Made by a program: the position numbers and the translations under genes. This document shows positions 1,399 to 33,300 of a stretch of 52,233 nt of DNA, in pieces. Where the stretch lies: positions 1 to 52,233 of the IMG/VR virus record IMGVR_UViG_3300042429_000905; one strand, given 5' to 3'. The first letter of the stretch is position 1. Every line of letters begins with the position of its first letter. This stretch comes from a virus (lineage: Duplodnaviria > Caudoviricetes). The notes below the pieces were generated by a model. The model had not been told where the DNA came from. It did not search any database and worked only from the letters and a program-made list of their open reading frames with translations.

Positions 1399-1525
1399 TG
1401 ACGTAATAAAAGCGGGAGGAAAGGCGGGCAATCGGGCGGGATATTACGAGCGGCAAACCCGGCACCATTGCCAGGCTGAAAAGGATATCGGAAAGACGGC
1501 GGAGGGGGTGACGTTTGAATTCCAT
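1391..1525 (-). CDS. Hypothetical peptide, 44 aa (MEFKRHPLRRL...)
   Basis: ATG at 1525 preceded by an A-run, downstream of promoter copy 2. Confidence 0.45.
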   Translation of the reverse strand: MEFKRHPLRRLSDILFSLAMVPGLPLVISRPIARLSSRFYYVRK

Positions 1526-1551
1526 TTTTTTTAAGGTATAGGTTGAGCGGC

Positions 1552-1612
1552 ATGATAAGCTTGCAACGTGCATTAGTCAAATTACTTTTTTACTACGCTG
1601 GAAACTATTTTC
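1552..1612 (-). promoter_or_regulatory. Sigma70-like early promoter, copy 2
   Basis: Minus strand TTGACT-17 nt-TATCAT; 1576-1612 is identical to 1362-1398. Confidence 0.75.
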
Positions 1613-1659
1613 CGGAATTTTCCTTTTGACGTGTTCCGGTTTAGTGGATTGATTCCACT

Positions 1660-1863
1660 ATGCCGGACGAAACTTCACCCATTAAACAACGGCGAAAGCG
1701 CCGCATTGACGAAACGTCGATTCAACATAGCCACCGAGTAATTGCGAAAGCTATCGGCGCTCACGTCCGGACCGTTCAAAACTGGCACTATGAAGGGCGG
1801 TTAAGGTATCGTATTTTGATGTATCTACTGGAACAAAATGGACTTGAAGGAGAAGGAAAATGA
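1660..1863 (+). CDS. Small helix-turn-helix DNA-binding protein
   Basis: SHRVIAKAIGAHVRTVQNW HTH pattern; divergent from the early promoters. Confidence 0.65.
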   Translation: MPDETSPIKQRRKRRIDETSIQHSHRVIAKAIGAHVRTVQNWHYEGRLRYRILMYLLEQNGLEGEGK

Positions 1864-2276
1864 GCGTTGCCATCCACAACTTTTCAAGGCTTCGCGCCCT
1901 TGCCCTAGGTCCGGGGATAATCGATTTCTGCAACAGAACCGCTCCGGATTTAATGAGACGATACGATAAAGCGGCTAGTCAATTCGACACGCTGCAAAGT
2001 GAACTTGAAAAAGAGTTGAACGACTTACGAGACGAGTTGCACGAGGGAACGCGGAGTGAAGCGCTCGCCGCCGCGCTTGTTATGAGCGAAAGACTAATGG
2101 GTCTACTTGAGAAGCAAATAGCTGCCCAGCACAAATTAACCGGAGGGGGAGCAGCTGCGGTATGGGTTGGAATGGCGAGACTACCGTCCGAAAACGGACA
2201 GGCTGAGGAAACGTTAGAGCGGGACGTAACGCCCCGCCGTAGACTAGGAAGCGGCGTGCAAGTAATCGACGCATAA
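1860..2276 (+). CDS. Coiled-coil protein, possible terminase small subunit
   Basis: ATGA overlap with the HTH gene; helical core and flexible tail ending VIDA; the function is an inference. Confidence 0.35.
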   Translation: MSVAIHNFSRLRALALGPGIIDFCNRTAPDLMRRYDKAASQFDTLQSELEKELNDLRDELHEGTRSEALAAALVMSERLMGLLEKQIAAQHKLTGGGAAAVWVGMARLPSENGQAEETLERDVTPRRRLGSGVQVIDA

Positions 2277-2683
2277 GTTGTTATACCATAATTACCATAA
2301 TGCGTTTTACATGACGGTCATTGTCGGAAGTTAATGCGTTGCCATTCCCCCCATGGGAAAGCCTGACAATTGGCAAGGGTGAAAGGTGAAGGGTGAAGGG
2401 TGAAGGTTCCGCCCGGCATAGCTTAGGCGATGGGTACGTAAAGAGGGGCGGGGGGACCTGCATTAGGGTCCCATACGAGCGAACGCAGCGAAGCTGTCGG
2501 GTTGCAGTTTCAGACCGGGGCCTTGGTTTCTATCCAGATTGACCACGCACCCAGATTAATTTTCCAACCCCCAATTTCATCTTCCTAACATATCACCTTA
2601 CTAACATATGCACTGAAACGCCCTCCCCCGTAATAGTTTTTTACCCGTAATTCCAGACATCCTAACATATGCATCCAGACACG

Positions 2684-2719
2684 AAAAAACCGCCACCGGG
2701 TAGTCCGGAAGCGGCTTTT
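2684..2719. terminator. Probable bidirectional terminator hairpin
   Basis: A6-CCGC..CCGG-loop-CCGG..GCGG-CTTTT, next to the stop at 2729. Confidence 0.5.
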
Positions 2720-2728
2720 CAGATCGTC

Positions 2729-2938
2729 CTAACAGATGAATACCAGCAGACCGGTGACTTCGTCCTCGTTGTAAAGACCCCACGGGTTGCCATTCTCTCC
2801 GTGGCGCTCGCGCTGCTCCCGCCCGTCTGCGGAGTGGTGGACGCGCAGGCCGTTGTCCCCGATGAACGCGTTGCAGCACTGGCAGTCTGCGGTGTGCCTG
2901 ACCGAGTCGCCAAGTGGAATTACGTGGATGATTCTCAT
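2729..2938 (-). CDS. Small His/Cys phage protein (MRIIHVIPLGD..H..CQC..VHHSADGRE)
   Basis: Putative metal-binding pattern; ATGA overlap with the upstream gene. Confidence 0.6.
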   Translation of the reverse strand: MRIIHVIPLGDSVRHTADCQCCNAFIGDNGLRVHHSADGREQRERHGENGNPWGLYNEDEVTGLLVFIC

Positions 2939-3192
2939 GGATTTGAATCTCCTTCCAGTTCTGCCAATCTCAAACAACGCTCCTGTGAGAGGCTGAATTT
3001 AAACTCGCACGCGCAGACTGGGGCTTCCTCCCGGGCTTTCTGGAGGGCGAGCCACTCCTTGGTGCGGCGGATAAAACCGATCCCGTCCTCGTTGACGACA
3101 GGTGGGCGGTCGTAGAACGAGTTCGGGATGCTGTCATCCCACCCGTCGTAGGGGTCCAAGCCCCAGTGGGGGTCGTCAAATAATTCATACAT
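2935..3192 (-). CDS. Hypothetical protein, 85 aa
   Basis: ORF coupled to the next gene. Confidence 0.5.
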   Translation of the reverse strand: MYELFDDPHWGLDPYDGWDDSIPNSFYDRPPVVNEDGIGFIRRTKEWLALQKAREEAPVCACEFKFSLSQERCLRLAELEGDSNP

Positions 3193-3233
3193 AAAAGTTG
3201 CGGTTTGGTTAATTTAGATGATTCCTGAAATTC

Positions 3234-3506
3234 ATGGACCACTTCACATTCTCCTGCGAGAGATGCCATCGTGACTTCGAGCCGGACCCCTCCATGGTCC
3301 TGCCGGTCACATGGACGAAGCTGGAACTTGACGAGGCCGACGACGACATGGAGGACTACCTCACGCCGGAAGAACTGGCGGAGGCGTCGGTGGAGGACTT
3401 GGCGGGACTGGGGTTGACGCTGGCCGACCGGGACGCGCTACTCGCGGGAGTAGAGGTCCAAGTCGGTGCGCGGATCGTCTGTAGGAGTTGCCAGTCTGAG
3501 ATGTGA
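3234..3506 (+). CDS. Acidic protein with two CxxC pairs, putative zinc ribbon
   Basis: CERC...CRSC; fills the gap between minus-strand genes. Confidence 0.55.
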   Translation: MDHFTFSCERCHRDFEPDPSMVLPVTWTKLELDEADDDMEDYLTPEELAEASVEDLAGLGLTLADRDALLAGVEVQVGARIVCRSCQSEM

Positions 3507-3508
3507 CG

Positions 3509-3610
3509 CTACCGGTCTTTGACTTCCCAGTAGGTCATGAGCAGGATGCAGGCGACGATGGTGCCGACCATCATGGAGAGGAGGCAGGTGGCGATGTCGG
3601 TTGTAGTCAT
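3509..3610 (-). CDS. Small membrane peptide, 33 aa (MTTTDIATCLLSMMVGTIVACILLMTYWEVKDR), below the ORF-track cutoff
   Basis: ATGA overlap at 3607-3610; hydrophobic helix. Confidence 0.5.
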   Translation of the reverse strand: MTTTDIATCLLSMMVGTIVACILLMTYWEVKDR

Positions 3611-3861
3611 GGTTTTGTGGTTGGTAATTGTGACTGATACTGGGCGACGCGCTCTCCCATGAGGCCTTCGCCGCTGGGGTCTTGGTCGTTGAGGATGGCT
3701 CGCCAGTAATCGGACGCCAGATCGGACAGAAGGATCTCGGCGTGGGCGAGGCGCTCCGCGACATCATCAAATGCTACCCAGTCGCCGTCGTCGCGCCGTT
3801 CCATTTCGCCAAGCGTGGAGCCACCTTGGTCGAAGCGGTGAATCGGGTCGTATCTCTTCAT
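3607..3861 (-). CDS. Hypothetical protein (MKRYDP..M..DDGDWV.FDD)
   Basis: Common small phage protein pattern; ATGA overlaps at both ends. Confidence 0.65.
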   Translation of the reverse strand: MKRYDPIHRFDQGGSTLGEMERRDDGDWVAFDDVAERLAHAEILLSDLASDYWRAILNDQDPSGEGLMGERVAQYQSQLPTTKP

Positions 3862-4187
3862 GGTTTTGGCTGGTCGGTTTTGCATTTGGCCAAGAAACGA
3901 TGCAGGAAGTTAAAGGAGTTTTCAGCGCGAGTCCCCCATTCGTCTTCTTTTCCGTTAGCCCAATTCACGCAGTCGTTTATTGCGGCGACGGCTTCGTCCC
4001 GCTCGCGCCTCAGAACGCACATGGGCCTGACGCAGGCATTGTGGCAGCTATGAATGCCGCGTGACCACTGGTTTTGATTGGCCGCGTTAAGCTCGCGCTC
4101 AAGCTGGCGGCAGAGGCTGAAAGCCCACTCGTCGTGCAAGCCTTCGGACCTTGCCTCACGTTCGTCTGTTCTTGGGGTGTCGCTCAT
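3858..4187 (-). CDS. Hypothetical protein (MSDTPRTD..RQLERELN type)
   Basis: Typical phage early protein N-terminus; coupled by ATGA. Confidence 0.7.
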   Translation of the reverse strand: MSDTPRTDEREARSEGLHDEWAFSLCRQLERELNAANQNQWSRGIHSCHNACVRPMCVLRRERDEAVAAINDCVNWANGKEDEWGTRAENSFNFLHRFLAKCKTDQPKP

Positions 4188-4369
4188 GGTTTAGGGCAGT
4201 GTCTGGTTTCGTCTTTGGGCCGGATGTAGAGGTCTTTCCGTGGGACGATAATCGCCACAGGGTCGCCGTCTGGGCGGAACGCCGCGCCGAACGAGTCCGA
4301 CCAATGGGTGCCGGTCATCCCGTATCTGATCCACGGGTAGGATTTGCCTACGTAGATGGCGCGTTTCAT
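4184..4369 (-). CDS. Hypothetical protein, 61 aa
   Basis: ATGA overlaps at both ends. Confidence 0.6.
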   Translation of the reverse strand: MKRAIYVGKSYPWIRYGMTGTHWSDSFGAAFRPDGDPVAIIVPRKDLYIRPKDETRHCPKP

Positions 4370-4677
4370 GGCTTGCTGCCCTCCAGTGCTTCCCGGCAGA
4401 TGTTGGCCACTACCAGTTCGATGGTGGTGTCGTCGATCAAACGGAGGGTGTCTTCGAGGGCTTTGACCCGGTCGCTAAGGTCAGCGGGGACGGGCAGCGC
4501 GGAGTACAGGGATTTGGCGGCGTCCTGCATGACGTGCATCGCCTCGGCGACGCCGGTGCGACCGGGATCGTCCTCGGGCATGTTGCTCAGTTGCGAGCTA
4601 AGTTCGGCAATGGTGAACTGGAGGGCGCAACCGGCAGCAGCAACGGCTTCGCGGGGGATAGACAGGTCGGTGTTCAT
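4366..4677 (-). CDS. Hypothetical helical protein (start MNTDLSIP)
   Basis: ATGA overlaps at both ends. Confidence 0.6.
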   Translation of the reverse strand: MNTDLSIPREAVAAAGCALQFTIAELSSQLSNMPEDDPGRTGVAEAMHVMQDAAKSLYSALPVPADLSDRVKALEDTLRLIDDTTIELVVANICREALEGSKP

Positions 4678-13223: not shown

Positions 13224-13439
13224 ATGAGCGACAACATTGACTACGCCCTGAGAGACTTGGAGGAGTACTTTGACTCTTTCCCGGAAACGGCCATCTCAAT
13301 CATCTTCGGTTTCCACGACGATGACGATGACGAAACCGGCTCCTACGTGTTCGCCGCCGGGAAGCGCCGGTTTCCCAGTGCGCCCACCATGTCCGGGGCC
13401 ATCCTCAATGCACACGCAGAACTTTTCTCAGCTAACTAA
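13224..13439 (+). CDS. Hypothetical acidic protein
   Basis: ORF with an A-rich start context. Confidence 0.55.
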   Translation: MSDNIDYALRDLEEYFDSFPETAISIIFGFHDDDDDETGSYVFAAGKRRFPSAPTMSGAILNAHAELFSAN

Positions 13440-13443
13440 ATAT

Positions 13444-13647
13444 ATGAATCCAGAACAACGACGCAAACGGGCCGCAGAACTCGCGGACGAGATCAATTCC
13501 AACCACCTGCTTCAGGACGACCTCCGGTTCCTGCTGACGGACCTGACGATGGCACGGATGTCCACGGCGGACAACGAGCGGGAGCGCACGATGCGACGCT
13601 CGCACGACATCAACCCGACCACCCCACGCCCCCAGTTCTCCTACTGA
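13444..13647 (+). CDS. Hypothetical protein (start MNPEQRRK)
   Basis: Fills the gap and ends 1 nt before the polymerase ATG. Confidence 0.55.
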   Translation: MNPEQRRKRAAELADEINSNHLLQDDLRFLLTDLTMARMSTADNERERTMRRSHDINPTTPRPQFSY

Positions 13648-13648
13648 C

Positions 13649-16600
13649 ATGAGCGTGTTCCATTGCGACTTTGAAACTTTTGGGAGCGAGGACCTCAAGT
13701 CCTACGGCGCGTTCAAATACGCCTCGGGCGAGGACACCGAGATCGTCCTCTGCGCGATCTGCAAGGACAACGGTCCGGTCGAGATCTGGGACCGCTACGC
13801 TAAGGACAACACCGCAGCCCTCATGCTGCTCAGAGAAGCCTGCGTCTCCGGAGGCATTATTGCGTCTCACAATGTGGGTTTTGAAATAGCAATTTCGGCA
13901 TACCAGTGGCAGCGGACTTTCAAATTCAAGCAGCCAGCCTTGACCCAGTGGCGATGCACCGCCGCCATGGCCCGAGTGGCAGGCATCCCCTACTCCTTGG
14001 AGAAAGCCGCCGAGTTCCTCAAACTGGCAGACCAGAAGGACAAGGTGGGCTCCGCGCTGATCAGGATCTTCAGCATCCCCGACAGCAAGACCGGCAAGCG
14101 GCGCTTCCCGACCGACCCCGGCACCGTCACCGTAGCAGGCGAGAAGCTGACCTACCCGCAGGCGTGGGCCAAGTTCAGCGATTACTGCCGCAAGGACGTG
14201 GAGGTTGAGCGCGGCATCCACAGCAAGCTCAAGTCCCTCGAACTGGAGGGGTTCCTGCTCGACAGCTTCCAACTGGATTTGCGGATGAACTGCACCGGCA
14301 TCCCGATCAACGTCCCGGCGGTGATCGAAGCGGAGAAGCTGGTGGACGCGTTCAACTTGACCGCTGGGGAGGAGTTCCGGGAGATCACCGGCTACAACTC
14401 CGGCCAGACGGCCAAGGTGCTGGCGTGGCTCAAGGAGCGCGGCTACCCCGGCGACGACATGAGAGCCACCACCGTCAGCCGCATCCTCACCGGCGAGGTC
14501 GAGGACGAAGACGGCGAGTCTACCGGAGAGACCGTGCAGCCCGAGTGGGCCGCGATGACTACCGAGGCCGTCAAGGCGCTCAAGCTGCGAGCCCTCCTCT
14601 CCTTCGCTGCGCTGAAGAAGCTACCCACCATGCGCGGGGCCGTCTGCCCGGACAACAAAGTCCGGGGGGCGCTCCTCTGGTACGGAGCCTCGCGCACGGG
14701 AAGGCATTCCGGGAAGATCATTCAGATCCAGAACTTCCGCCGCCCGTCCATCGACAACACCCACGAGTGCTACGACCTGATCCGCAGCGGTTGCGCCGAC
14801 CCCGAGTTGCTGGAGTTGGCCTACGGGAGTCCCTTGGAGGCCATCGCCTCCTGCATCCGGCACTTCATCCACCCCGCCGACGGCCAGTTCCTCGACATCG
14901 ACTTGGCACAGATCGAAGCGCGGGTGGTGGCGTGGCTCTCTGGCCATGATGAGTTGCTCCAGTCCTTCCGTGACGGCAAGGACCTCTACAAGACCACGGC
15001 GTCGCTGGTGTTCGGCGTCCCATACGACAAGGTAGACAAAGAGTTAAGATTTCTCGGCAAGACGTTAGCACTAGCATGTAATTATGCCGGGGGCTACCGC
15101 GCCTTTGCCACCATGGCCAAGAACTTCGGGACCGAGGTGCCCAAGAAGAAGGCCAAAGAGGTGGTCAAGCTTTACCGCTCCGCCAACAAGGCCATCACCG
15201 GCTTCTGGAGCGCCATGCAGGACGCCGCCGTTGCGGCCATCGAGGCCCCCGGAACATGGCAGGTCGTCAACGACAAGATCCGGTTCGGTTGTCACCGCAA
15301 GCTCGGCTACCTGAACATGGTGATGGAGCTTCCCTCCGGTCGCCGGTTGAACTACCCTCTGCCCGAGGTCACCACCGTCTACAAATACGGCAAGAAGGTC
15401 GTGGACGCCGACGGCGAGGAGGACACCGAGTGGATGCCTATCGACAAATGGCGGGCGCTCAACTCAGACGGCACCGTCCGCGAAGGCATCTGGGCGTCCA
15501 GCGAGATCAGCTACCACGGTCCGATTACACAGGCGATGTGGGGCCGAGTCCGGACCTCGGGCGGAGTGTTAGTGGAGAACTGTCTTGGCCACGAGACCGA
15601 AGTTCTGACAGAGGATGGGTGGGTAGTCATAACTGGCATAAAAAACCAGCGGGTTTTTGACGGAGTTGAATTTGTCAGTCATAAAGGCTTGCGCTCAATC
15701 GACAAAGGTGCCACCATTGACTTCGACGGACTGGAAATTACTCCTGACCACCTGATTCTGACAGCGGAAGGCTGGTCCCCGTCAGAGAACACAAATTATG
15801 AAAAAGCCTACGAATGCTGCAACTCGCTATGTCGGGAGAATTTACGGGAACCTCACGGTGCTGGAGAGGCACGACTGCCCGGACGGGAAACACTGGAGAT
15901 GGAGAGCATCGTGCAAGTGTGGAGGGGAGAGGCTGATGCACGAGACGGACATGGGTCCGACGACGAAGGCAAAGTTCTGTTCCAAGAACTGCCCATTTCT
16001 GTCATCATACATCAGCAAGAACAGGACATCGCACGGAATGTCCCGTCACCCAGCATACGCAGTGTGGAGAAGTATGACGGACAGGTGCAAACTTCCGACA
16101 CACCAAGCGTGGCACAACTACGGGGCCAGAGGGATAACAGTGTGCAAGCGGTGGGCGGACTTTACGAAGTTCTGGGAGGACATGGGGGCGACCTACGTTC
16201 ACGGGTTGGACTTGGACAGAGAGAACAACAATGGGAACTACACCCCCAAGAATTGCAGGTGGACTACCAGGCGGATCAACACCAGAAACCGTCGGAAGTC
16301 TGTTTACGTGGAATCCCCTTGGGGGAGGATCAATCTGGCCGAGGCAGTGGAGAAATCGGGGATAGGTCACACCACGCTGCTTTACCGGTTGTCGAGGGGG
16401 ATCACAGATTCAGATCTGTTGTTTGTGAAGCCAAACGTGAAACACAAGTTTACGACATCATCAGTTGTGGTCCGAGGAGAAGGTTCGTCGTCCGAGGGAA
16501 AAAGAAAAAGGCGCTGATCGTCCACAACTGCTGCCAAGCCACTGCTGCGGATTTCCTCACCCACGGCGTCCTGAACGCTGAGAAACACGGATACGAGCCT

Positions 16601-16756
16601 TGCTTCGTGGTCCACGATCAGTTGATCTGCAACCACCACCCCGAGCGCGGCAACACCATGGAGGAACTGACCAGCCTGTTCTGCGCCATACCCTCGTGGG
16701 CACCCGGATTCCCTCTTGAAGCCGCCGGAGCCATTACCCCATACTACACCAAATGA
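13649..16756 (+). CDS. polA: Family A DNA polymerase with 3'-5' exonuclease, intein-containing precursor (1035 aa; 719 aa after splicing)
   Basis: Exo DFET, HNVGFE, YCRKD; RTGRHS; motif A DLAQIEARV; motif B KTLALACNY; EN|CCQATAAD; motif C VHDQ. Confidence 0.95.
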   Translation: MSVFHCDFETFGSEDLKSYGAFKYASGEDTEIVLCAICKDNGPVEIWDRYAKDNTAALMLLREACVSGGIIASHNVGFEIAISAYQWQRTFKFKQPALTQWRCTAAMARVAGIPYSLEKAAEFLKLADQKDKVGSALIRIFSIPDSKTGKRRFPTDPGTVTVAGEKLTYPQAWAKFSDYCRKDVEVERGIHSKLKSLELEGFLLDSFQLDLRMNCTGIPINVPAVIEAEKLVDAFNLTAGEEFREITGYNSGQTAKVLAWLKERGYPGDDMRATTVSRILTGEVEDEDGESTGETVQPEWAAMTTEAVKALKLRALLSFAALKKLPTMRGAVCPDNKVRGALLWYGASRTGRHSGKIIQIQNFRRPSIDNTHECYDLIRSGCADPELLELAYGSPLEAIASCIRHFIHPADGQFLDIDLAQIEARVVAWLSGHDELLQSFRDGKDLYKTTASLVFGVPYDKVDKELRFLGKTLALACNYAGGYRAFATMAKNFGTEVPKKKAKEVVKLYRSANKAITGFWSAMQDAAVAAIEAPGTWQVVNDKIRFGCHRKLGYLNMVMELPSGRRLNYPLPEVTTVYKYGKKVVDADGEEDTEWMPIDKWRALNSDGTVREGIWASSEISYHGPITQAMWGRVRTSGGVLVENCLGHETEVLTEDGWVVITGIKNQRVFDGVEFVSHKGLRSIDKGATIDFDGLEITPDHLILTAEGWSPSENTNYEKAYECCNSLCRENLREPHGAGEARLPGRETLEMESIVQVWRGEADARDGHGSDDEGKVLFQELPISVIIHQQEQDIARNVPSPSIRSVEKYDGQVQTSDTPSVAQLRGQRDNSVQAVGGLYEVLGGHGGDLRSRVGLGQREQQWELHPQELQVDYQADQHQKPSEVCLRGIPLGEDQSGRGSGEIGDRSHHAALPVVEGDHRFRSVVCEAKRETQVYDIISCGPRRRFVVRGKKKKALIVHNCCQATAADFLTHGVLNAEKHGYEPCFVVHDQLICNHHPERGNTMEELTSLFCAIPSWAPGFPLEAAGAITPYYTK
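15581..16528 (+). mobile_element. Intein in the DNA polymerase (residues 645-960, 316 aa)
   Basis: Block A CLGHETEVLTEDGW, block B ITPDHLILT, block F VYDI, block G IVHN followed by +1 Cys; removing it restores VEN-CCQATAAD. Confidence 0.93.
15798..16517 (+). CDS. HNH homing endonuclease nested in the intein in the +1 frame
   Basis: GRIYGNLTVL..CKCG; HGMS..Y.VW.SM..RC..YGARGITVC.RW..F..DMG..LDRENNNGNY.P.NCRW.T..N.RN; C-terminal HTH-like segment; A-rich start context ACACAAATT-ATG. Confidence 0.88.
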   Translation: MKKPTNAATRYVGRIYGNLTVLERHDCPDGKHWRWRASCKCGGERLMHETDMGPTTKAKFCSKNCPFLSSYISKNRTSHGMSRHPAYAVWRSMTDRCKLPTHQAWHNYGARGITVCKRWADFTKFWEDMGATYVHGLDLDRENNNGNYTPKNCRWTTRRINTRNRRKSVYVESPWGRINLAEAVEKSGIGHTTLLYRLSRGITDSDLLFVKPNVKHKFTTSSVVVRGEGSSSEGKRKRR

Positions 16757-16875
16757 CCAAACTGTAAGCCGTGCAGAGCATTGCGGGAGGGGGTTTACTT
16801 GTTGTCCTCCTAGAACTGCGCGTCCGGGGCAGCGCGTCCGCCATCCACGGAGCCCCACCCAACTACCTAACAACT

Positions 16876-17295
16876 ATGAACGCATCCGAACTAAACGAAC
16901 GCTCCATCTATCTTCGCCGTCTTGCCGACCAGATCGACAACCTCGCGCTGGACCAAATCGCCATCGACAACCGACGCAGCGAGTTGCTGCAAGACTTGAG
17001 CCGGTTTGTGCCGACGACGGTCAACAAGCCAACCGAGAAACTGGAAAGTGCTCCCGATGAGCCTAGAAAATCCTTCAGCTTTGTAAGCTACGTCAGCCCG
17101 GAGTCGGTAACGTGTACCGCCATCATGAAGCAGTTCAAAGCCAAGCATCCGGCACCAATACATCGCCGCAGCATCGTGACGGACGTTGACGCCAACTCCA
17201 TCAGCTTCTACCTTTCCAGCCTCAAGCGTCACGGCCTGATAAATAACCCCACCCGTGGATTCTGGACGTTGACCGAGAAAGGAATCAAGGCGTGA
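16876..17295 (+). CDS. Coiled coil plus Mrr N-terminal-like winged helix
   Basis: ISFYLSSLKRHGLINNPTRGFWTLTEKG. Confidence 0.6.
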   Translation: MNASELNERSIYLRRLADQIDNLALDQIAIDNRRSELLQDLSRFVPTTVNKPTEKLESAPDEPRKSFSFVSYVSPESVTCTAIMKQFKAKHPAPIHRRSIVTDVDANSISFYLSSLKRHGLINNPTRGFWTLTEKGIKA

Positions 17296-25198: not shown

Positions 25199-27346
25199 AT
25201 GGCTGTTACTCCAGATCCCGTCGGCGCATATAACCAGTCTTTCCAGACGGCGGACACCTCCCGCCGCGACTACGAGCGTCTTGAGATGCAGCGCCAGTTG
25301 CAAGCTGAGGCTGCGATCCAGCGTGCCCGCGAGCAGAAGGCGAGCGACTTCAAGATGATGATGGAGGCGATTGGTCGCCGGGACGATCTGAAGCAGCGGG
25401 TTTTCGAGAACGACATCAGAACCAAGCAGCTTGCCAACGACACCGTGACGGCGCAGGCGAACGCCTACCGCGCCCGCAACCCGATTTCCCGCAGCGGGCA
25501 GGGCTTACGCGAATTTTCTCTTTCAGGGGTTCCGCAACCTGCCATTCCGGGAGATGGCACTACGTCATCTACGGTTCCGCCTATGGGGGAAGGAAGCGTA
25601 AATGCGAGTGGCTCATCAGCAAATGGTGCGGAGGCCGATTTACCGATGACAGCCGGAGTTAACACCAATTTTCTGATCCCATTTACTGTTCCGCCGACTG
25701 CTGCGTCCGGTACTGTTCCTGATCTGCTCCCCGGAGAACTGATGTTGCCTCCGCAAGCGCCGACGGACAACACCCCGCCCGCCACCCCGCCTAGCTCTCC
25801 CGGCCTTTTGCCGGTCAGCACCCCTGCTTTTACACCGACTCCCTCTGCGCTCAACGCGGGGCTGATGCCGCGCACTGTTGCGCTTGCTCCTACTGCGGTT
25901 CCAGCAATGGACGTCCCAAATACCGCTCCTGCTACGAGTCCGCAGGCCATGCCACAGCTTCCAGCCGCGTCTACTACCGCGCCCGCCGTGTCCGCACCTG
26001 TGCCGCGACGCAACGATTTGATGGGGTACATGCTGAATAGAACCGACCCTTACACCGACAGAATTGACATTCCACGCGTTGCGCAGATGCCGGAAGTCCC
26101 AGTGTTTGGCCAAGCCGACATCGCCGCCGAAGGACGCGATCAATTAAACAAACTGGCCGAGTTTCAAGCGCAGGCACAAGTGGGGGCCACTTTAGCTTCC
26201 AGAAATGTCGATAAAGCAACTCGAGAGCTAATGTCCGGAGAATTAACCCCGAACGGCGTTCAAGAGGCACAGAAATATATTGCACAGCAAACACTCGCCG
26301 CCACGCAGGCTTCCCGCGCAGATGCAAAAGCAGGCCAGCAAATAGCCCAAAACGAGGAAGTTTTAAAAGGGATTGAATTGCGTCAAGGTGCCCTTAACCG
26401 CTTGGGTAACCTCAACGGCGTGCTGCCAATAGGGGATCGCAGGCAAATCTACCAAGAAGCGTCAGACCCCAGAATGGCGCAGTTGGCAGAGCAGAAAATC
26501 GCCGTCCTTACCGAGTACGACGCCTTTCGGCAGCTTAATGGGATCACCAATGCCAGCCGTGGATACAGCACGGCAGAGCAAGTGGTGCGGGCAAAACGAG
26601 AACTCGATTCGCCCGATGCCATCAAGGACCGCAAATTGGTTGAGGACTCCCAAGCATATCAAGCTGACATCAAAGCACGTCCTGATATGGATGAGCAAAC
26701 AAAAGCGGATTTTGAATTGGAAATCAGAAAAGCTAACCCCGCACAGACAAGGCAGAACCGGCTTATTACCCGACTCAACGACGCGCTTAAAGCCGACAGG
26801 CTACCGACGAGGCCACCAGCAACAGCGGCTGTCAAACCGGAAGACATCAGGGTAAACCCTGCTACCGGAACTGCCGCCGCGCCCGGAATCGACCGCAGCG
26901 GGGGCAGAGACATTCTGAGCAATCAGCAGAAAGTCGATCAAGCCAACCAAACTGCTAGGAACGAATACTGGGGGGCAAACACCGCCGACGTCGCCCGGCA
27001 AGTCTTCATGGACGGTGGCAGGGACGAAGAAGGCAACATCGTTCCGCCGTTCAGCATCGCGCTTTTGGAGAAGATTGCAGAAGGCAAAACCAGTGGGCCA
27101 GGTTTCAGGGGTGGACAAGCAGGCGCACCCCAGTACGCGGACACCATCGTCAAACAAAATCTCTCCAACTGGACGCCGACTAAAGGCGACCGTGTCAACT
27201 GGGGTCGGGAAACGCAGCCCACCGCGCAAGACTTCCTCAAAATTGCAGCCCGAGATAGATTAGACAAAATCAAGGCGGGCGCGGTTGCAAACGGGCCTCT
27301 CTCCCCCGAGAAGAAGAAAGAAGCAGAACAATTTCCTATAAAATGA
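25199..27346 (+). CDS. Internal virion / ejection protein, 715 aa
   Basis: Coiled coils with a long Pro/Ala/Thr linker; lies between ejection genes. Confidence 0.65.
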   Translation: MAVTPDPVGAYNQSFQTADTSRRDYERLEMQRQLQAEAAIQRAREQKASDFKMMMEAIGRRDDLKQRVFENDIRTKQLANDTVTAQANAYRARNPISRSGQGLREFSLSGVPQPAIPGDGTTSSTVPPMGEGSVNASGSSANGAEADLPMTAGVNTNFLIPFTVPPTAASGTVPDLLPGELMLPPQAPTDNTPPATPPSSPGLLPVSTPAFTPTPSALNAGLMPRTVALAPTAVPAMDVPNTAPATSPQAMPQLPAASTTAPAVSAPVPRRNDLMGYMLNRTDPYTDRIDIPRVAQMPEVPVFGQADIAAEGRDQLNKLAEFQAQAQVGATLASRNVDKATRELMSGELTPNGVQEAQKYIAQQTLAATQASRADAKAGQQIAQNEEVLKGIELRQGALNRLGNLNGVLPIGDRRQIYQEASDPRMAQLAEQKIAVLTEYDAFRQLNGITNASRGYSTAEQVVRAKRELDSPDAIKDRKLVEDSQAYQADIKARPDMDEQTKADFELEIRKANPAQTRQNRLITRLNDALKADRLPTRPPATAAVKPEDIRVNPATGTAAAPGIDRSGGRDILSNQQKVDQANQTARNEYWGANTADVARQVFMDGGRDEEGNIVPPFSIALLEKIAEGKTSGPGFRGGQAGAPQYADTIVKQNLSNWTPTKGDRVNWGRETQPTAQDFLKIAARDRLDKIKAGAVANGPLSPEKKKEAEQFPIK

Positions 27347-30300
27347 ACTGGTCCGAAGTCATAGAAAAACCCGGGTTCTCCGATCTTAGCACTTCCCAGC
27401 AGGACATTGTTCGGCAGCGGTGGGTGGATGAGGTCTACATGCCGCAGGCTGTCAAAGCCGGGTGGAATGAATCGGACATGTCCGCGCTGCGACAAGAACA
27501 AATTTCCAACTACGACAACGGCCAAGGGTACATCTCGTCCTTCGCCAGCGCCGCCGGACGTGGCGCGGCCTCCACCTTCACCTCCGCCGTGCAAGGTGTC
27601 GGTGCCCTCACCGGCAGCGAAGCCATTGAGCAAGCTGCCCGCGAGATGGACACGGCGGTCACGGAGAACCTGACGGTCAACCCGTCCATGGGGAAGACCA
27701 ACTTCACCGGCAACGTGCTTGGCAACGTGGCCGGGTTCCTCGCGCCCGGTATGGCAGGGATGAGGATCGGCAGAGCACTGGGTGCCGGGGCCGAGTTGGT
27801 AGGCGGAACTGCCGCCGAGGTCGCCGCCCAAACTGCCGCCCGAGCCGCCAGCGCCCAGTTGGGCGGGCGAATCGCCGCCAACACCACCATGCTTGCCTCG
27901 GGCGCAGGCAGCGGGGCGCAACAGGCCGACCGATACGGCATCGAAGGTCCGGAGCGCATGGGCATGGTCCTTGGTAACGCGGCCACCGAGATGCTTTCTG
28001 AGAACATCTTCGGCCTTGGTTCTGAGTTGAACACGATGAGCAGGCTCGCCGGACTTGGCGGACTTGGGGCAAACGCGGCAAGAAGGACCGGCGGGTTCCT
28101 CGCCGACGTGGGAGAGAACACGGTGGAAGAAATTGCTGCCAACGTGGGGTCCAACCTCGTCGCTTCAACCTTCGCTCCAGAAGGAGTGCAGACCCCCGGA
28201 ATACTTGAGAACAACGTCGAAGCAGGAGCTGGTGGTGCCATTGGCGGCGCGTTCTTCGGCGGCATCAACCTGATGCGTCCCCTTCCGCCCGTTGCTCCGA
28301 GACCTTCCGAGGCCATCAGCGCTGGGGTGGCCCAGCAAGCGGCAGCGGCTAACGATCCTGAAGCTGCGGCTGCACATCCGGGAGCCAAGTTCCAACCTAC
28401 CCCTGCTCCGCAAGTTCCGGGGGCTATTGCGTTTGATCCTACCATCGCTGACCCGTTGGCACCTGCTGCCGGGGCGCTACCTCCGCCACCCGGATTTGCA
28501 GAGACAACTCCTGCGGAGGCATTTCCAGCAGCCTTGCCGCAAGGGTTACCTGCGGCGGCGGCAGTTCCGGGAGCCGTGCCAGAAGCATTTCCTGCGGCGG
28601 AGACGCTACCCGCAGCGCCCGCTGGGGCACTACCTGCGGCAGAGGCGCTTCCCGAGTTGGACATCTCGCTTCAGGCGGGCGCGTACACGGGGGATCTGCT
28701 GCAAGGAAAAGAAGTCATAGGGGAGGGTTCCGAATCCACAGTTTACAGGGACGGAGACTCGGTCATCAAAGTGTCCGAGCCCTACAACGATAACTCAGAA
28801 GAAACATTCCAAGCGCGGGTGGACCGCGCAATGGACATTGATAATTTGATAGGGGATGGAACCTTGTCAGTCGAAGGATTTTACCGGTCGAAGAACGGCA
28901 CAAAAAACCCAGTGTTCCGCCAAACTTTTGCGGAAGGTCGGCCAGCTACCCGTGAGGAGATACAGGCATACATGGAGTCCCGTGGGTTCCAAGTTAAAGA
29001 AGCTGGAACTACCACGGACACGTTTGTAAAAGTATCCGATGGTGTGGAAATCACCGCATCCGATTTAGACGGAGCCAACGTGGTGGTAGGGACTGACGGC
29101 AAATTCCACGTAATTGACGCCGACTTGGTTCGGAGACCTGCACCAACCCAAACTGCGCCTGTGACGGCACCAGCGGGTGCGGTGCCGCCCGTCGGCGAGC
29201 CCCTCGTGGCAGGGCGTTTTACGGGAGTCACCGAAGCCCCTCCCACAGAGCTGTTCCACTCGGGAGAACTTCCTGAAGGGCTGGATAGCATCGACCCAAT
29301 GCGGACGACCGGAGCAAAACAAGGCAAACGTGGAAGAGACTTCGGTGGGTTCTACGCAGGGCCAGCCGAAACCGCCGCCAAATACAAAGGACCGAAAAAC
29401 CGGCTGGCTATTGCTCCGGGAGCGCGGGCCATGCGGGTCGCAGCCAGAGGAGCCATCGAAAGGCTCAGTCTCAAAGACCGGCAGGATCTCCTTGACCAAG
29501 GCGTGGACATTATTTCAGGCATCGACATCAGGGGTCTCCCTGAGTCCGTGATCCTTAACAAAGACGTGATCCTGTCGGTTGAGTTGGACACGCAAACGGC
29601 ACCAGCGGCGACACCTGTGACAGCACCAGCGGGTGCGGTCCCTCCCATGACGGAGCAGGCACCGCCCGTCGCGCCGCAAACGCCTGCGGTCCCGCCAGCG
29701 GCTCCAGCAGTGGCGTCACAAGGAGCCACCCCCAGCGACCTGATCGACCAGACTGGCAGGCTGACTGTCGAGGGTGCGCAGAGCATGATCGAGGCGATCC
29801 AATCGCTCGGCCTTACCACCGCTCCGTTCGTCATCAACAACACCGGAGTGGCTCCCGGCGTCATCGCCCCTCCTGTCGCAGGATCGACCACCCCGGTGGA
29901 CGGTAAGCCTGTCGTCTTTTTGAACCAAGAAAGGATGACTCTGGACACGCCGCTCCACGAGACGACCCATCTGCTCACCCCCACTTTATTTGCCGAGCAG
30001 CGGGCGCTTTACGATGTAGGAGCCGCGCTGCTGGCCGACTCCCCTTTGCGTCAGGCCATCGTCAACCGGTATGTCACCGAGGCTGGCATGACCATGACCG
30101 ACGAGCAGATCACCGAGGAGGCAATGGTGACCGGGTTGGCCAACAACGGAGCCGAGTGGCTCAGAGCCTACGCGGGCAACGCCAAAATGACACGGGCCAT
30201 CAAGGAGTTCCTCGCCAAGGTGCGCGAGTGGTTCGACGACCTGATGTACTCCAAGGGGTTTAACCCCAACATGAGTCTTGAACAGTTCTACAAGAAGGTG

Positions 30301-33300
30301 AACCGGCAGATTCTGGCTGGGAAGCTGCAACAGCGGGCGACGAACGCGCCGGTGCAGGCAATGTCACTGGCGGACATCGAGAAGCTGAAAAGCCCGACTG
30401 GCATCCCACTGGCGGCGTTTGCGTCCAGATACGCCAAGGACATCAAGCCAGCGGACAAAACCTTGGCAGATGCGGATCGGATCGCTTCCGAGAAGCTGAA
30501 CGAAGTAAACCAAAATCCGGGTTCGCTCCTTCCGACCGCAACCGCACAAGGGGTCAGGGAGTACCACACCCGCATTCTGATCCAGCCTGATGGTAAAACT
30601 TACGACCCCAACAACCTCAACCATGCGGATGCCACTCCGGAAGTACTAGCCATCTATCAAATGCGGCAGAACGGTTCCGCTGCGGCAATGGAGCAGCAGG
30701 AAGCGGACAGAGTAAATCAGATACGGCAGGACGACCTCAAGAAACTGACGGATTACCTGAAGGAAAACACGGATTACTCCCCATCCGAGGCGATGGTAAT
30801 GGTTCTCGCCGCCAGCAAATACGGAGTCAGGTCCAAGAAGACGGACGACGTGGTGACTTTTACCGCCGTGGAGATTACGGACAAAAACCAAGTGATGGTC
30901 CCGGTGGTAGACGGGACGATGGTCCCGCGCCTGCGCGATAAGATGGCCACTGGGATGTCCATGAAGAAAGCCTTGGAGGCTGCTTACACGGACGCCATGG
31001 ACGCTCAAGTCCAAGCCAACCGCGACAACAGGTACGAGGGACTGGTAAAATTCAGACAAAGTCAGAATTACGAGGACGCCGTGGCGCTGAACAAAGCCTG
31101 CGCCGGAACGCCATGGTGTACGGGAGCTTCTACCACCACGGCGGAGACCCACATCAACGGCGGAGACTTCTACGTGTATTTTGAGGGTGGCATTGCTCAA
31201 GTAGCGTTCCGTATGGACGGGAACGACAAACTGGCAGAGCCTCCACGGGGAAATTATGAAGGCCAAGCTCTTAACGAGCGGCAGGCAGAGATTGCAGATA
31301 AAGTTTTGCGCGGCGGGGAGATACCCGGAGGACAAGGATTTTTATCGGACAGGGACTTTATCAGCAAGGTCAAGAACGACCTTGCGGGTATGACCGACGA
31401 CGAAGTGTTTATGGGAATGTTCGCCAGCCGAAAGTCTGAAAACGGATATGGTCCAAACGCACGTAAATTCCCGGAATCGGTAAAAATCGCATTGGAAGGG
31501 CAATACAACCTCCGAGATCTTCGCGCAAAAGGGTACTACATGTTGAGCGACGACTACCCATCAACAGCGGTAGCTGTTTACAGTTTAATGGGACGACGTA
31601 CATTTTACCCAAATCTACGGCTTGTTGCACTGGACGTGTCCAACAACGAAGGGGAGCTAAACTTGCCCGCGCTTACAACGGTCGGAGGAAATGTATCTGG
31701 CAACGTAGGGGATATTAAGTTTCCCAATCTAATCACAATTGGCGGGGGGATGTCGTCCAACAAAGGGAGCATAAACCTACCCGCGCTTACCACAATTGGC
31801 GGAGAGGTGTCCAGCAACGAAAAAGACATAAACCTACCCGCGCTTACCACGGTCGGCAAGAGCGTGTGGTTTAACAAAGGGGACATTAACCTACCTGCCC
31901 TTACCACGATTGGTGCGTCTGCATCCTTTAACAATGGAGATTTAAATTTTCCAGAGCTAACTAAGGTTAGCGGATCTGTGTCTAACAACGCAGGTAATCT
32001 TAACTTCCCTACGCTGACCACGGTGGGCGGGGAAGTGGCTCGCAACACAAAAGATCTAAACTTTACTGCGCTTACCACTGTTGCAGGGGGCGTGTCCATT
32101 AACTATGGAGATCTGAACTTTCCTGCGCTTATCACTGTCGGAGATTCTGTAAACGACAACAATGGAAATCTGAATTTTCCAAAGTTAACCACAATTAGGG
32201 TGGACGTGTCCAGAAATACAAAAGATCTAAACTTCCCTGCGCTTACCACTGTCGGAGGGGATGTAGCCCACAACAGCGGCATTATCTTTCCCGCGCTGGC
32301 CACGGTTGGTGGGGGAGTTTACCGCAATAGTTGGAACCTTGACTTCCCCTCGCTGACCACGGTTGGTGAGGGCGTTTACAACAACGACGGAAACCTGAAC
32401 TTCCTTGCGCTTACAACGATTGGCGGAAACTTAACCAGCAACTTAGGAGAACTAAATTTTCCTTCGCTCACCACAGTTGGCGAAAAAATATCTCGCAACG
32501 TAAACGACCTTAATTTACCTAAGCTAACGACGGTCGGTACGGATGTGTCTAACAACGAAGGAAGTCTTAACTTCCCTGCACTTACCACGGTTGGCGGGTC
32601 AGTGTATCGCAACGAAAAAAATCTTAATTTCCCCAAGTTAACAAAGGTTGGTGCGGATGTATCCAGCAACACAGGGGATCTTAACATGCCCGTTCTTGCC
32701 ACAGTCGGCGGGATCGTGTCCAGAAACACCGGGGACCTTAACATGCCCCTGCTGGAGACGGAACCCGTTTTCACCGGTAAGTACGCCGAACAAACCGGCG
32801 CGTCGCAGGCTCCCGACACCCGCTTCTCCCTCGCCCCCGCCACTCCGACACCTCAGTCTGCGCGGCACGCAGCACTGGAAGCCAAGCACAACGACGGGAC
32901 CATCACCCCGGCGGAGACGGCGGAGGCGCAAGCTCTGGTGGACGAGGTGGCAAAAGCTGCCGGGTTTATAACTGGATTAAACCATTTTAGTAAATCTACT
33001 GGGTTTACCACTTTTGAACCCAAGAAAGCGCTTCACATCGGTCATCACTTCGGTCCTCTGCATCAAGCTGCGGCTATTGAAAGGCAAGTGACACGCGACG
33101 GCAGACAGGGCAAAATGTTTAACGTCGCACTAAGCGTCAAGAATCCACTCAGAGTAGCCGATGGAGGCGATTCGGTGTACAAGTCATCCGAAATAGAATT
33201 CAACGGGGTGACTTATTACAACCAAGGATGGGGGTATAACGTAGCGGACGCGCTTCAAGCAGCAGGTAAAACAAAAGCTGCCAAAGAGGTCGTGCAAATC

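Follow-up and report, generated by a model that had tools for sequence, protein, structure and literature searches.

An intein in a phage family-A DNA polymerase holds a putative HNH-like homing-endonuclease gene in its +1 frame

How can an intein be associated with a homing endonuclease that is written in a different reading frame from its host protein, and what keeps both frames open? This question is raised by the DNA polymerase (PolA) gene of IMGVR_UViG_3300042429_000905, a complete IMG/VR virus record of 52,233 bp with a CheckV completeness of 100%. The whole record was analyzed and is referred to here as the window. A first-pass annotation, made from the sequence alone, had described an intein in PolA whose middle part encodes an HNH endonuclease in the +1 frame. 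The analysis below supports a mobile class-1 PolA intein with a separate HNH-like homing-endonuclease gene overprinted in the +1 frame, and we consider this reading likely as a whole.

The intein and the open reading frame inside it

The PolA open reading frame (ORF) at 13649-16756 (+) runs through 1035 amino acids without interruption. The features within it are as follows; in the amino acid motifs here and below, an arrow marks the intein border.

13649..15580, +: PolA N-extein, ending ...GGVLVEN (ORF; Pfam DNA_pol_A, E 1.3e-19; PHROG phrog_17, DNA polymerase, E 3.6e-85)
15581..16528, +: class-1 intein of 316 codons, PolA codons 645-960 (splicing motifs; predicted model resembling solved inteins)
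15581..15808, +: N-terminal splicing part of the intein, residues 1-76, with the C1 and TPDH blocks (beta-rich; included in the intein-fold match)
15798..16517, +: HNH-like putative homing-endonuclease gene of 239 codons, shifted +1 relative to PolA and bounded by its own ATG and TGA (PHROG matches; conservation)
15809..16432, +: read-through linker, residues 77-284, without a predicted fold, whose DNA is the nuclease gene (low model confidence; no family match)
16433..16528, +: C-terminal splicing part of the intein, residues 285-316, VYDI...VHN (high model confidence; invariant residues)
16529..16756, +: PolA C-extein, beginning CCQATAADFL, stop codon included (ORF; PHROG phrog_7766, DNA polymerase, over residues 955-1035)

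The hallmarks of an intein are all present: Cys1 (TGT at 15581-15583), T54-P-D-H57, V290-Y-D292, H315-N316, and Cys+1 (TGC at 16529-16531). The insertion site is the conserved polymerase block YGGxLxEN↓CxQA. Among 10 aligned inteins (alignment A2), C1, T54, H57, D292, H315, and N316 are invariant columns, and V290, G297, P298, F302, and V303 are invariant as well. When the insert was searched in the polymerase frame, no match was found in Pfam, PHROGs, or NCBIfam. The first-pass annotation had placed a complete intein in the EN-xxQ motif of PolA, with a middle part lacking both a recognizable domain and stop codons, and its description and coordinates were correct. A group I intron was also considered for the insert; no Rfam match at E <= 1 was found in 15000-17200, and an intron is not needed to explain an insert with intein motifs and an open frame.

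The structure of the polymerase-frame intein was predicted with the alignment of the 10 inteins. The pLDDT score (predicted local distance difference test), averaged in blocks of ten residues, falls from 89 to 65 across residues 1-70 and is around 80-82 across residues 291-316. Within the linker, residues 77-216 and 225-284 stay under a pLDDT of 50, and most block means there are 28-47. When the model was compared with 48,161 PDB representatives, all of the top 31 matches were inteins or Hint domains. The best match was the MchDnaB-1 mini-intein 6riy_A, with Z 12.2, a root-mean-square deviation (rmsd) of 2.5, and 114 of 130 residues aligned. The confident ends and the intein and Hint matches indicate that the two ends are predicted to form a complete mini-intein of about 110 residues (1-76 plus 285-316), and that no fold is predicted for the linker between them. 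The mini-intein would presumably be able to splice.

In the +1 frame, the same DNA carries an ORF that starts at ATG 15798 and stops at TGA 16515-16517, 11 nt ahead of the intein end, exactly where the first-pass annotation had drawn it. The best PHROG matches of its product are named HNH endonuclease (phrog_3377, E 3.7e-45; phrog_374, E 1e-43). In total, five HNH-endonuclease PHROG families and one restriction endonuclease family match with E values from 2e-21 to 4e-45, and a sixth HNH-named family matches at 6e-5. In the nuclease alignment (A1), the window protein shares 41-47% identity with nine of its 10 relatives and 37% with the tenth, and 46 columns are invariant among the 11 sequences.

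The nature of this protein has to be weighed, and several results count against a homing nuclease. The Pfam, NCBIfam, and PDB-sequence searches with the window protein gave no match, and no HNH model matches any of the 11 relatives at E <= 10. The label HNH therefore comes from the PHROG names, and the "full HNH endonuclease" of the first-pass annotation holds at the level of the PHROG families and not at that of the Pfam and NCBIfam HNH models. The structural model is of moderate confidence (mean pLDDT 69), and Foldseek found nothing in the PDB at E <= 0.001. The best VIA-align match over all PDB representatives is the HNH restriction enzyme PacI (Z 5.8, rmsd 3.6), a weak alignment of 79 residues over model residues 76-168 that is below a trustworthy level. 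In our reading of alignment A1, the canonical first HNH His is not evident in the conserved L-D/E-R-x-D/N-N block.

All of this, together with nearest ESM Atlas clusters that contain unnamed phage proteins only, would also fit a DNA-binding or accessory protein that is nested in the intein by chance. As to a separate DNA-binding module, matches to helix-turn-helix Pfam models are weak and occur in 1-2 of the 11 relatives (best E 1.8e-4); residues 180-199 form helices in the model, and the nucleases of two loci (L014 and L017) lack the C-terminal part that holds these helices in the window model. A chance-nested accessory protein is nevertheless quite unlikely in view of the strong PHROG matches to nuclease families. 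The model also contains a predicted beta-beta-alpha unit (strands 138-141 and 153-156, helix 158-163), and the residues N152 and N164 at this unit are invariant. NUMOD1 and I-HmuI_NUMOD-like modules are typical of homing endonucleases, and among the nearest ESM Atlas clusters that bear Pfam domains, such modules are found on 23-45% of the members. Finally, the position of the gene and a presence/absence polymorphism exactly at the intein borders, described below, fit homing. The +1 protein is thus likely, but not proven, to be a nuclease.

Selection in the two reading frames

The two frames place different demands on the same DNA, and the selection acting on each frame can be measured. A stop codon in the polymerase frame arises only where a nuclease codon ending in T precedes a codon that starts with AA, AG, or GA. 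Nuclease codons followed by such a codon are called at-risk codons here. The test was performed on 13 non-redundant loci (the window, L001-L003, L005, L006, L009, L010, L012-L014, L016, and L017). Four near-identical copies (L004, L007, L011, and L015) and a locus with a split arrangement (L008) were left out. The fractions of codons ending in T were as follows.

Nuclease ORFs of the 13 loci: 0/625 at-risk codons, 429/2246 other codons (pooled Fisher p 1e-50)
Nuclease ORF of the window: 0/74 at-risk codons, 35/177 other codons
Polymerase N-exteins of the same loci, as a control: 313/1941 at-risk codons, 928/6429 other codons (p 0.07)
Free-standing nuclease gene of L008, as a control: 5/45 at-risk codons, 45/170 other codons

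The chance of an open polymerase frame ranges from 5e-3 to 8e-8 per locus. The window has the lowest value, 8e-8, which by our own arithmetic becomes about 0.01 if the use of T at the third codon position (T3) in the window's own extein, about 5-7.5%, is assumed instead. The controls indicate that there is no intrinsic avoidance of at-risk codons ending in T. The avoidance is lost in L008, where the polymerase no longer reads through the nuclease gene. These tests indicate that the polymerase frame is kept open purely via synonymous choices in the nuclease gene.

At the amino acid level, the opposite frame is the conserved one. Over the same aligned DNA (153 codon columns), the mean pairwise amino acid identity is 55% in the nuclease frame vs 29% in the polymerase frame, and the nuclease frame has the higher identity in 78 of 78 pairs. 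The nucleotide diversity at nuclease codon positions 1, 2, and 3 is 0.37, 0.33, and 0.60. The highest value at position 3 indicates that the wobble position of the nuclease codon is the free one.

The first-pass annotation had also proposed a comparison of the ratio of nonsynonymous to synonymous substitution rates (dN/dS) in both frames. The ratio was calculated by NG86 among 26 distinct sequences, whose 325 pairs included only 7 at 70-99.5% nucleotide identity. In these 7 pairs, dN/dS was 0.16-0.22 in the nuclease frame vs 0.85-1.56 in the polymerase frame. Two properties of these values weaken them as support for our reading: all of the pairs come from one subgroup (L010, L026, L035, L036, and L038) that does not include the nearest relatives of the window, and overlapping genes bias dN/dS; in direction, the values are in line with the other tests. 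Both frames are therefore under selection, as the first-pass annotation had proposed in stating that both are kept open, and the selection differs between them. Purifying selection on amino acids acts in the +1 frame only, and stop avoidance acts in the polymerase frame.

Recurrence of the layout and translation of the nuclease gene

The +1 protein was searched by tblastn against 50,697 phage records. The best matches lie inside annotated DNA polymerase genes, with identities of 47% in Shewanella phage SFCi1, 45% in eleven APSE records, and 46% in four Caulobacter phages. When SFCi1, APSE-1, APSE-2, and RW were translated, a nuclease-like open stretch was found in the +1 frame inside an unbroken polymerase ORF in all four, and each of the inserts ends with V-[YF]-D...C-G-P-R-x-R-F-V...V-H-N↓C. 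Hosts named in the member phage records include Caulobacter vibrioides CB15 and Shewanella fidelis 3313. Free-standing relatives of the nuclease are also present in many phages.

The same layout was found in 12 of 13 IMG/VR loci, with L008 as the exception, and in 23 of 25 JGI/ENA metagenome contig loci, with L023 and L025 as the exceptions. L023 was taken as the same contig as L008, since both contigs have 48,377 bases and the same layout, and L025 is a 1.3-kb fragment in which the ORF is not fully covered by the polymerase frame. Among the metagenome loci, several are duplicates of IMG/VR loci, and four with identical nuclease-region DNA were left out of the dN/dS calculation. The nuclease was found in frame or in the +2 frame in none of the loci examined. 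Across the independent assemblies with the +1 layout, nuclease identity is 42-54% (best-segment figures). A scan of genome contigs with the nuclease protein found no relative.

The intein was also searched in its polymerase-frame translation against 5.8 billion proteins. At E <= 1e-5, 67 clusters were found, and most of them aligned over the whole insert including the linker. The closest protein, P0001, shares 43% identity over the intein. The clusters are mostly PolA proteins, and about 15 are SNF2-type helicases (P0042, P0044, P0048-P0050, P0052, P0053, P0058, P0059, and P0063-P0067). The intein of helicase P0042 aligns across all 316 residues, from C-I-A...T-P-D-H to V-Y-D-I...V-H-N. The helicase clusters were compared as proteins; a homologous intein is seen in them, in most cases with the linker included in the alignment, and a +1 ORF would be putative there.

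Within the polymerases, the intein occupies three insertion points within five codons of one block, always with Cys at +1.

...E-N↓C-x-Q: the window, SFCi1, and others
...G-G-K-x↓C-E-N: APSE, RW, and others
...G-G-K↓C-V-E-N: the L010 group

The intein borders of L002, L003, L010, L013, L014, L017, L022, L035, L038, and L041 differ from those of the window, L001, L005, L006, L009, L012, and L016. As a separate observation, the polymerases of L006/L007 and L014/L015 carry a second, upstream intein-like insert (at residue ~428 and residue ~767, respectively). These upstream inserts end with ...VHN↓C after W/Y-D-[IV]...G-x-x-x-R-F-T.

Two members of the family depart from the contiguous form. L008 is a "fractured" form, in which the N-terminal part of PolA and the N-terminal intein half make up one ORF (1405-3498). 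The nuclease gene (3474-4121) is distinct, starts at an ATG of its own, and overlaps both neighbours. The C-terminal intein half with the C-terminal part of PolA follows at 3983-4423, its intein ending V-S-N↓C. The former polymerase frame holds stop codons in L008. This fractured form shows that the read-through linker is dispensable. The other member, P0068 (748 amino acids, from a single 4.5-kb contig), reads without a change of frame from the N-terminal part of PolA through the N-terminal half of the intein into the nuclease, at whose stop codon it ends. This fusion, which has no C-terminal intein part, may be a genuine allele, fused or broken, or the result of a frameshift error. In a search for longer, in-frame fused forms among 346 candidates, P0068 was the sole match and is not a canonical in-frame intein; absence in this search is weak evidence.

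The start of the nuclease gene is a further conserved feature. In nine of 13 loci (L002, L003, L005, L006, L010, L012, L013, L014, and L016), an ATG or GTG lies exactly 202 nt past the intein start. Purines resembling GAAGG or GAGGG lie 7-10 nt upstream of this start and are the codons of the conserved Glu-Gly-Trp motif of the intein. Judged from the sequence, these Glu-Gly-Trp codons may double as the ribosome-binding site of the nuclease. Three loci have an ATG 15 nt upstream of the +202 position. The window has a 27-nt insertion in this region, and its first start, ATG 15798, lies at +217 behind an A-rich leader.

Several observations in the window count against separate translation. Its nuclease start is shifted 15 nt from the usual place in the family and has no Shine-Dalgarno sequence. 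No sigma-70-like promoter was found on the + strand in 13300-17000 (nor was a terminator), and no RNA run is listed among the 24 public runs that hold the stretch. With respect to the Shine-Dalgarno sequence, 17 gene starts of the window were compared. Most genes, PolA included, have no Shine-Dalgarno sequence and have leaders rich in A and C, which suggests that the host of this phage relies little on Shine-Dalgarno pairing. The lack of such a sequence at the nuclease start is therefore no argument against its translation. The A-rich start context that the first-pass annotation had likened to that of other genes is roughly right: the A content of the 20 nt before ATG 15798 is 0.40, compared with 0.15-0.55 at 16 other starts. 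The RNA structure around the nuclease start is unremarkable (z -1.35). Without an internal promoter and a notable RNA structure, internal initiation on the polymerase mRNA is the simplest reading, and the nuclease is probably produced in this way.

A different route of expression would be programmed ribosomal frameshifting, by which the nuclease is joined to the N-terminal intein half or a canonical in-frame intein-endonuclease is re-created. The +1 open stretch does start 36 nt upstream of ATG 15798, and P0068 shows the N-terminal part of the intein and the nuclease in one frame. With frameshifting, however, nothing would require an open polymerase frame, yet no contiguous locus has a stop in it, and none of the 625 at-risk codons ends in T. 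The start codon is at the same place in most loci, L008 has its nuclease in a gene of its own that begins at an ATG, and P0068, represented by one sequence, may be an error or a broken allele. Frameshifting is thus very improbable, and separate translation of the nuclease is preferred.

It can further be asked whether the out-of-frame layout is a long-lived, co-adapted design and not a transient accident. This proposal is tentative and somewhat doubtful. It is put forward because one unit of intein and nuclease persisted while the nuclease diverged to ~45% identity, and because this unit moved among three insertion points and into SNF2 helicases. If it is true, the conserved codons of the intein may serve as the nuclease ribosome-binding site, and ribosomes translating the polymerase may throttle initiation of the nuclease. 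The dose of the nuclease would then be tied to polymerase expression and not to splicing.

Alleles in natural populations, known systems, and genome setting

The stretch was also found in 24 public runs, of which 23 are labelled lake water and one industrial waste. Four of these runs (X3, X4, X9, and X21), none of them flagged as a possible source of the window, were compared by means of Logan contigs, not raw reads. In X3 and X4, single unitigs of 1016 nt span 15547-16562 with 0 differences, and no insertions or deletions relative to the window are listed in any of the four runs. These exact unitigs exclude the paired frameshift errors that the first-pass annotation had named as a concern; no indel that would put the HNH ORF in frame with the intein was seen.

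An in-frame endonuclease domain shifted by two compensating indel errors would be conceivable because the window is a metagenome-assembled virus record. Apart from the unitigs, the +1 layout occurs in isolate phage genomes and in dozens of independent assemblies, and stop avoidance at the codon level cannot come from errors. An assembly artefact is therefore hardly credible, and the overprinted layout is real.

The same runs also contain polymerase genes without the intein, in two allelic forms.

15577..16532: replaced by 8 letters in intein-free alleles (joint 15576>16533), present in 4 of 4 runs
15580..16532: replaced by 5 letters in a second X21 allele (joint 15579>16533)

Both intein-free alleles have a net loss of exactly 948 nt, in frame. 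By hand translation, their products read V-E-N-V-S-Q-A and V-E-N-A-S-Q-A, compared with V-E-N↓intein↓C-C-Q-A in the window. The flanks of the intein-free contigs extend 30 letters on each side in X3, X4, and X9, and the listed pieces (X3 and X4) are identical to the window. The contig word depths of the two forms, which are rough values, are of the same order: 14 vs 13.8 in X3 and 25.4 vs 50 in X4. The intein-bearing and intein-free forms look like two branches of one assembly bubble, that is, of one phage population, and the element is polymorphic in the same phage population. As a side observation, the industrial-waste run X21 includes contigs from a diverged relative with many extein substitutions beside the intein, at 15346-15545 and 16579-16612 (14 listed differing places before the intein and 10 after it). 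The lake-water runs are identical to the window in both of these segments, and X4 and X9 differ from it only at 16696 and 16758.

In our reading, the natural empty site is not what an exact excision of the intein would leave: its Glu and Asn codons carry synonymous changes, and other residues stand at the two positions past the junction. The cleavage substrate proposed in the first-pass annotation, a precise deletion, is therefore not the natural empty allele, as the alleles in the population read V-S or A-S in place of C-C. Either the flanking extein codons travel along with the intein, for which Cys+1 is required, or the empty alleles are diverged sites; the contigs fit both cases. The empty alleles with a divergent junction could also be resistant variants and not targets, and this possibility counts against homing into them.

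The element is thus real, selected, and polymorphic, and it is probably still mobile. A relic would be the alternative: the design of the family is real and the window intein splices, while its +1 ORF is unexpressed or inactive and the element is immobile. The N-terminus and start of the window ORF are unlike those of the family (+217 in place of +202, after the insertion), the upstream context of the start is weak, and the second Cys of the C-G-C motif of the family is unaligned in the window. However, the ORF runs through 239 codons without a break and, by construction, has every one of the 46 residues that are invariant in alignment A1. None of its 74 at-risk codons ends in T, and other genes of this phage likewise lack a Shine-Dalgarno sequence. 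In addition, alleles with and without the intein coexist in all four runs, as expected if the element is moving now or moved recently. A relic is therefore unlikely.

The mechanism that we propose for the mobile intein with its overprinted nuclease is as follows. The endonuclease loop of a mini-intein would have been filled by an HNH-like gene of the free-standing type, placed in the +1 frame. Ribosomes translating the polymerase would read through the nuclease DNA and produce an unstructured linker of ~208 residues. On splicing, the linker would leave the protein along with the intein, so that the sole demand on the polymerase frame would be the lack of stop codons. Most likely, ribosomes that initiate internally at ATG 15798 of the same mRNA make the nuclease as a separate protein, and the nuclease most likely cuts the intein-free polymerase alleles of co-infecting phages. 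Repair would then transfer the intein, together with the nuclease gene and the neighbouring Cys codons, to the cut alleles, which is homing. With regard to origin, the free-standing relatives and the fractured L008 fit the invasion of a mini-intein by a free-standing gene. The first-pass annotation had proposed the same event; the relatives and L008 agree with it, and the origin itself can be stated as probable only. The G+C content is 0.50-0.56 within the intein vs 0.58-0.67 in the remaining PolA gene, and at codons of the window without stop risk T3 is 0.20 in the nuclease ORF vs 0.075 in the extein. Both differences fit a foreign origin.

The first-pass annotation had supposed that rare precedents may exist in other phage inteins, and such precedents were found. 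In the RefSeq record of APSE-1 (NC_000935.1), P46, "HNH endonuclease", is annotated as overlapping P45, "DNA polymerase". The P45/P46 pairs of APSE-1 and APSE-2 resemble the window in that the nuclease belongs to the same family (44.9% identity), is encoded +1 within a PolA ORF that stays open, and is followed by the same intein C-terminal motif. They are unlike the window in that their intein is inserted three codons upstream (...GGKS↓CEN... vs ...EN↓CCQ...). P46 is annotated from an internal ATG with 141 codons, and the open stretch there has 222 codons. Literature searches found no text on this PolA intein family or on P45/P46 as an intein with a nested gene; the 1999 APSE-1 genome paper was outside the reach of these searches.

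The general principle of an out-of-frame endonuclease in an intein is already described in two preprints from 2025 and 2026, whose supplements may list members of the present family. According to the first (Gosselin, Arsenault, and Gogarten, 2025), actinobacteriophage inteins contain an endonuclease VII-like gene (IPR004211) "in reading frame 3", an arrangement said there to be unreported before, and its proposed origin is a free-standing endonuclease invading an intein. As in the window, the splicing blocks flank an endonuclease gene that shares their strand but not their frame, and the in-frame middle is unstructured in models. Unlike those endonuclease VII-like genes in frame 3, the gene described here belongs to another family, one without a Pfam model, is in the +1 frame of family-A polymerases (and is accompanied by intein copies in SNF2 helicases), and comes from phages of other sources.

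The second preprint (Phillips, DeSimone, and Gogarten, bioRxiv 10.64898/2026.09.14.751524) describes a cyanobacterial dnaX intein with a LAGLIDADG gene in the +2 frame. This intein shares with the window family a frame-dependent dN/dS, a disordered middle, and coexisting alleles in lake metagenomes; it differs in its bacterial host gene, its LAGLIDADG enzyme, and its +2 ORF. No Endonuclease_7 or LAGLIDADG Pfam match was found in the window nuclease, and its frame is +1. The window element therefore lies outside both described out-of-frame families (endonuclease VII-like in frame 3 and LAGLIDADG in +2) and is a further case of the same kind.

Three other systems are related in part. In the fractured genes of Dassa et al. 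2009 (PMC2677866), a free-standing-type endonuclease gene likewise lies inside the intein of a replication enzyme with short coding overlaps, and L008 is organized exactly in this way. The enzymes named there are GIY-YIG and Vsr-like, not HNH-like, and unlike in those genes, the host gene of the window is unbroken and the polymerase frame spans the whole endonuclease gene. The ShiLan domain of a phage DNA methylase, described by Arsenault et al. 2025 (PMC11855218), also has an out-of-frame HNH gene overprinted on a stop-free host frame; in contrast to the window, the insert there lacks a splicing domain of the intein type and is retained in the host protein. Canonical in-frame inteins with LAGLIDADG or HNH enzymes (e.g. 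7qsu_A and 1dq3_A) share the splicing motifs, the fold, and an endonuclease in the same Hint loop. In these, the endonuclease is part of the intein polypeptide, whereas in the window it is presumably a separate product.

Specific to the present family are a nuclease family without a Pfam model, the +1 frame, and a family-A polymerase host, together with the three adjacent insertion sites, the helicase copies, and a direct view of both alleles in one natural population. It adds a large intein family, with members in phages of several sources, to a recently recognized class in which the homing enzyme is a separate overprinted gene. The family also supports the idea that inteins acquire endonucleases via invasion by free-standing genes. 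The family offers contiguous (the window), split (L008), and fused (P0068) forms for direct comparison, and with the coexisting alleles in lake metagenomes the dynamics of homing can be followed in nature. Gene callers will overlook such a nuclease, and for annotation it is worth reading "disordered" intein middles in other frames.

PolA is located in a replication module that contains a primase, an exonuclease, a Gp2.5-like single-stranded DNA-binding protein, PolA, a VRR-NUC-like endonuclease, and an SNF2-type helicase. Elsewhere in the genome, an ORF of 3,823 codons at 27343-38814 (+), which makes up ~22% of the genome, gave no hit to PHROGs at E <= 1e-5. The same is true of nine further large ORFs, one at 16771-17292 and the others within 19125-50070.

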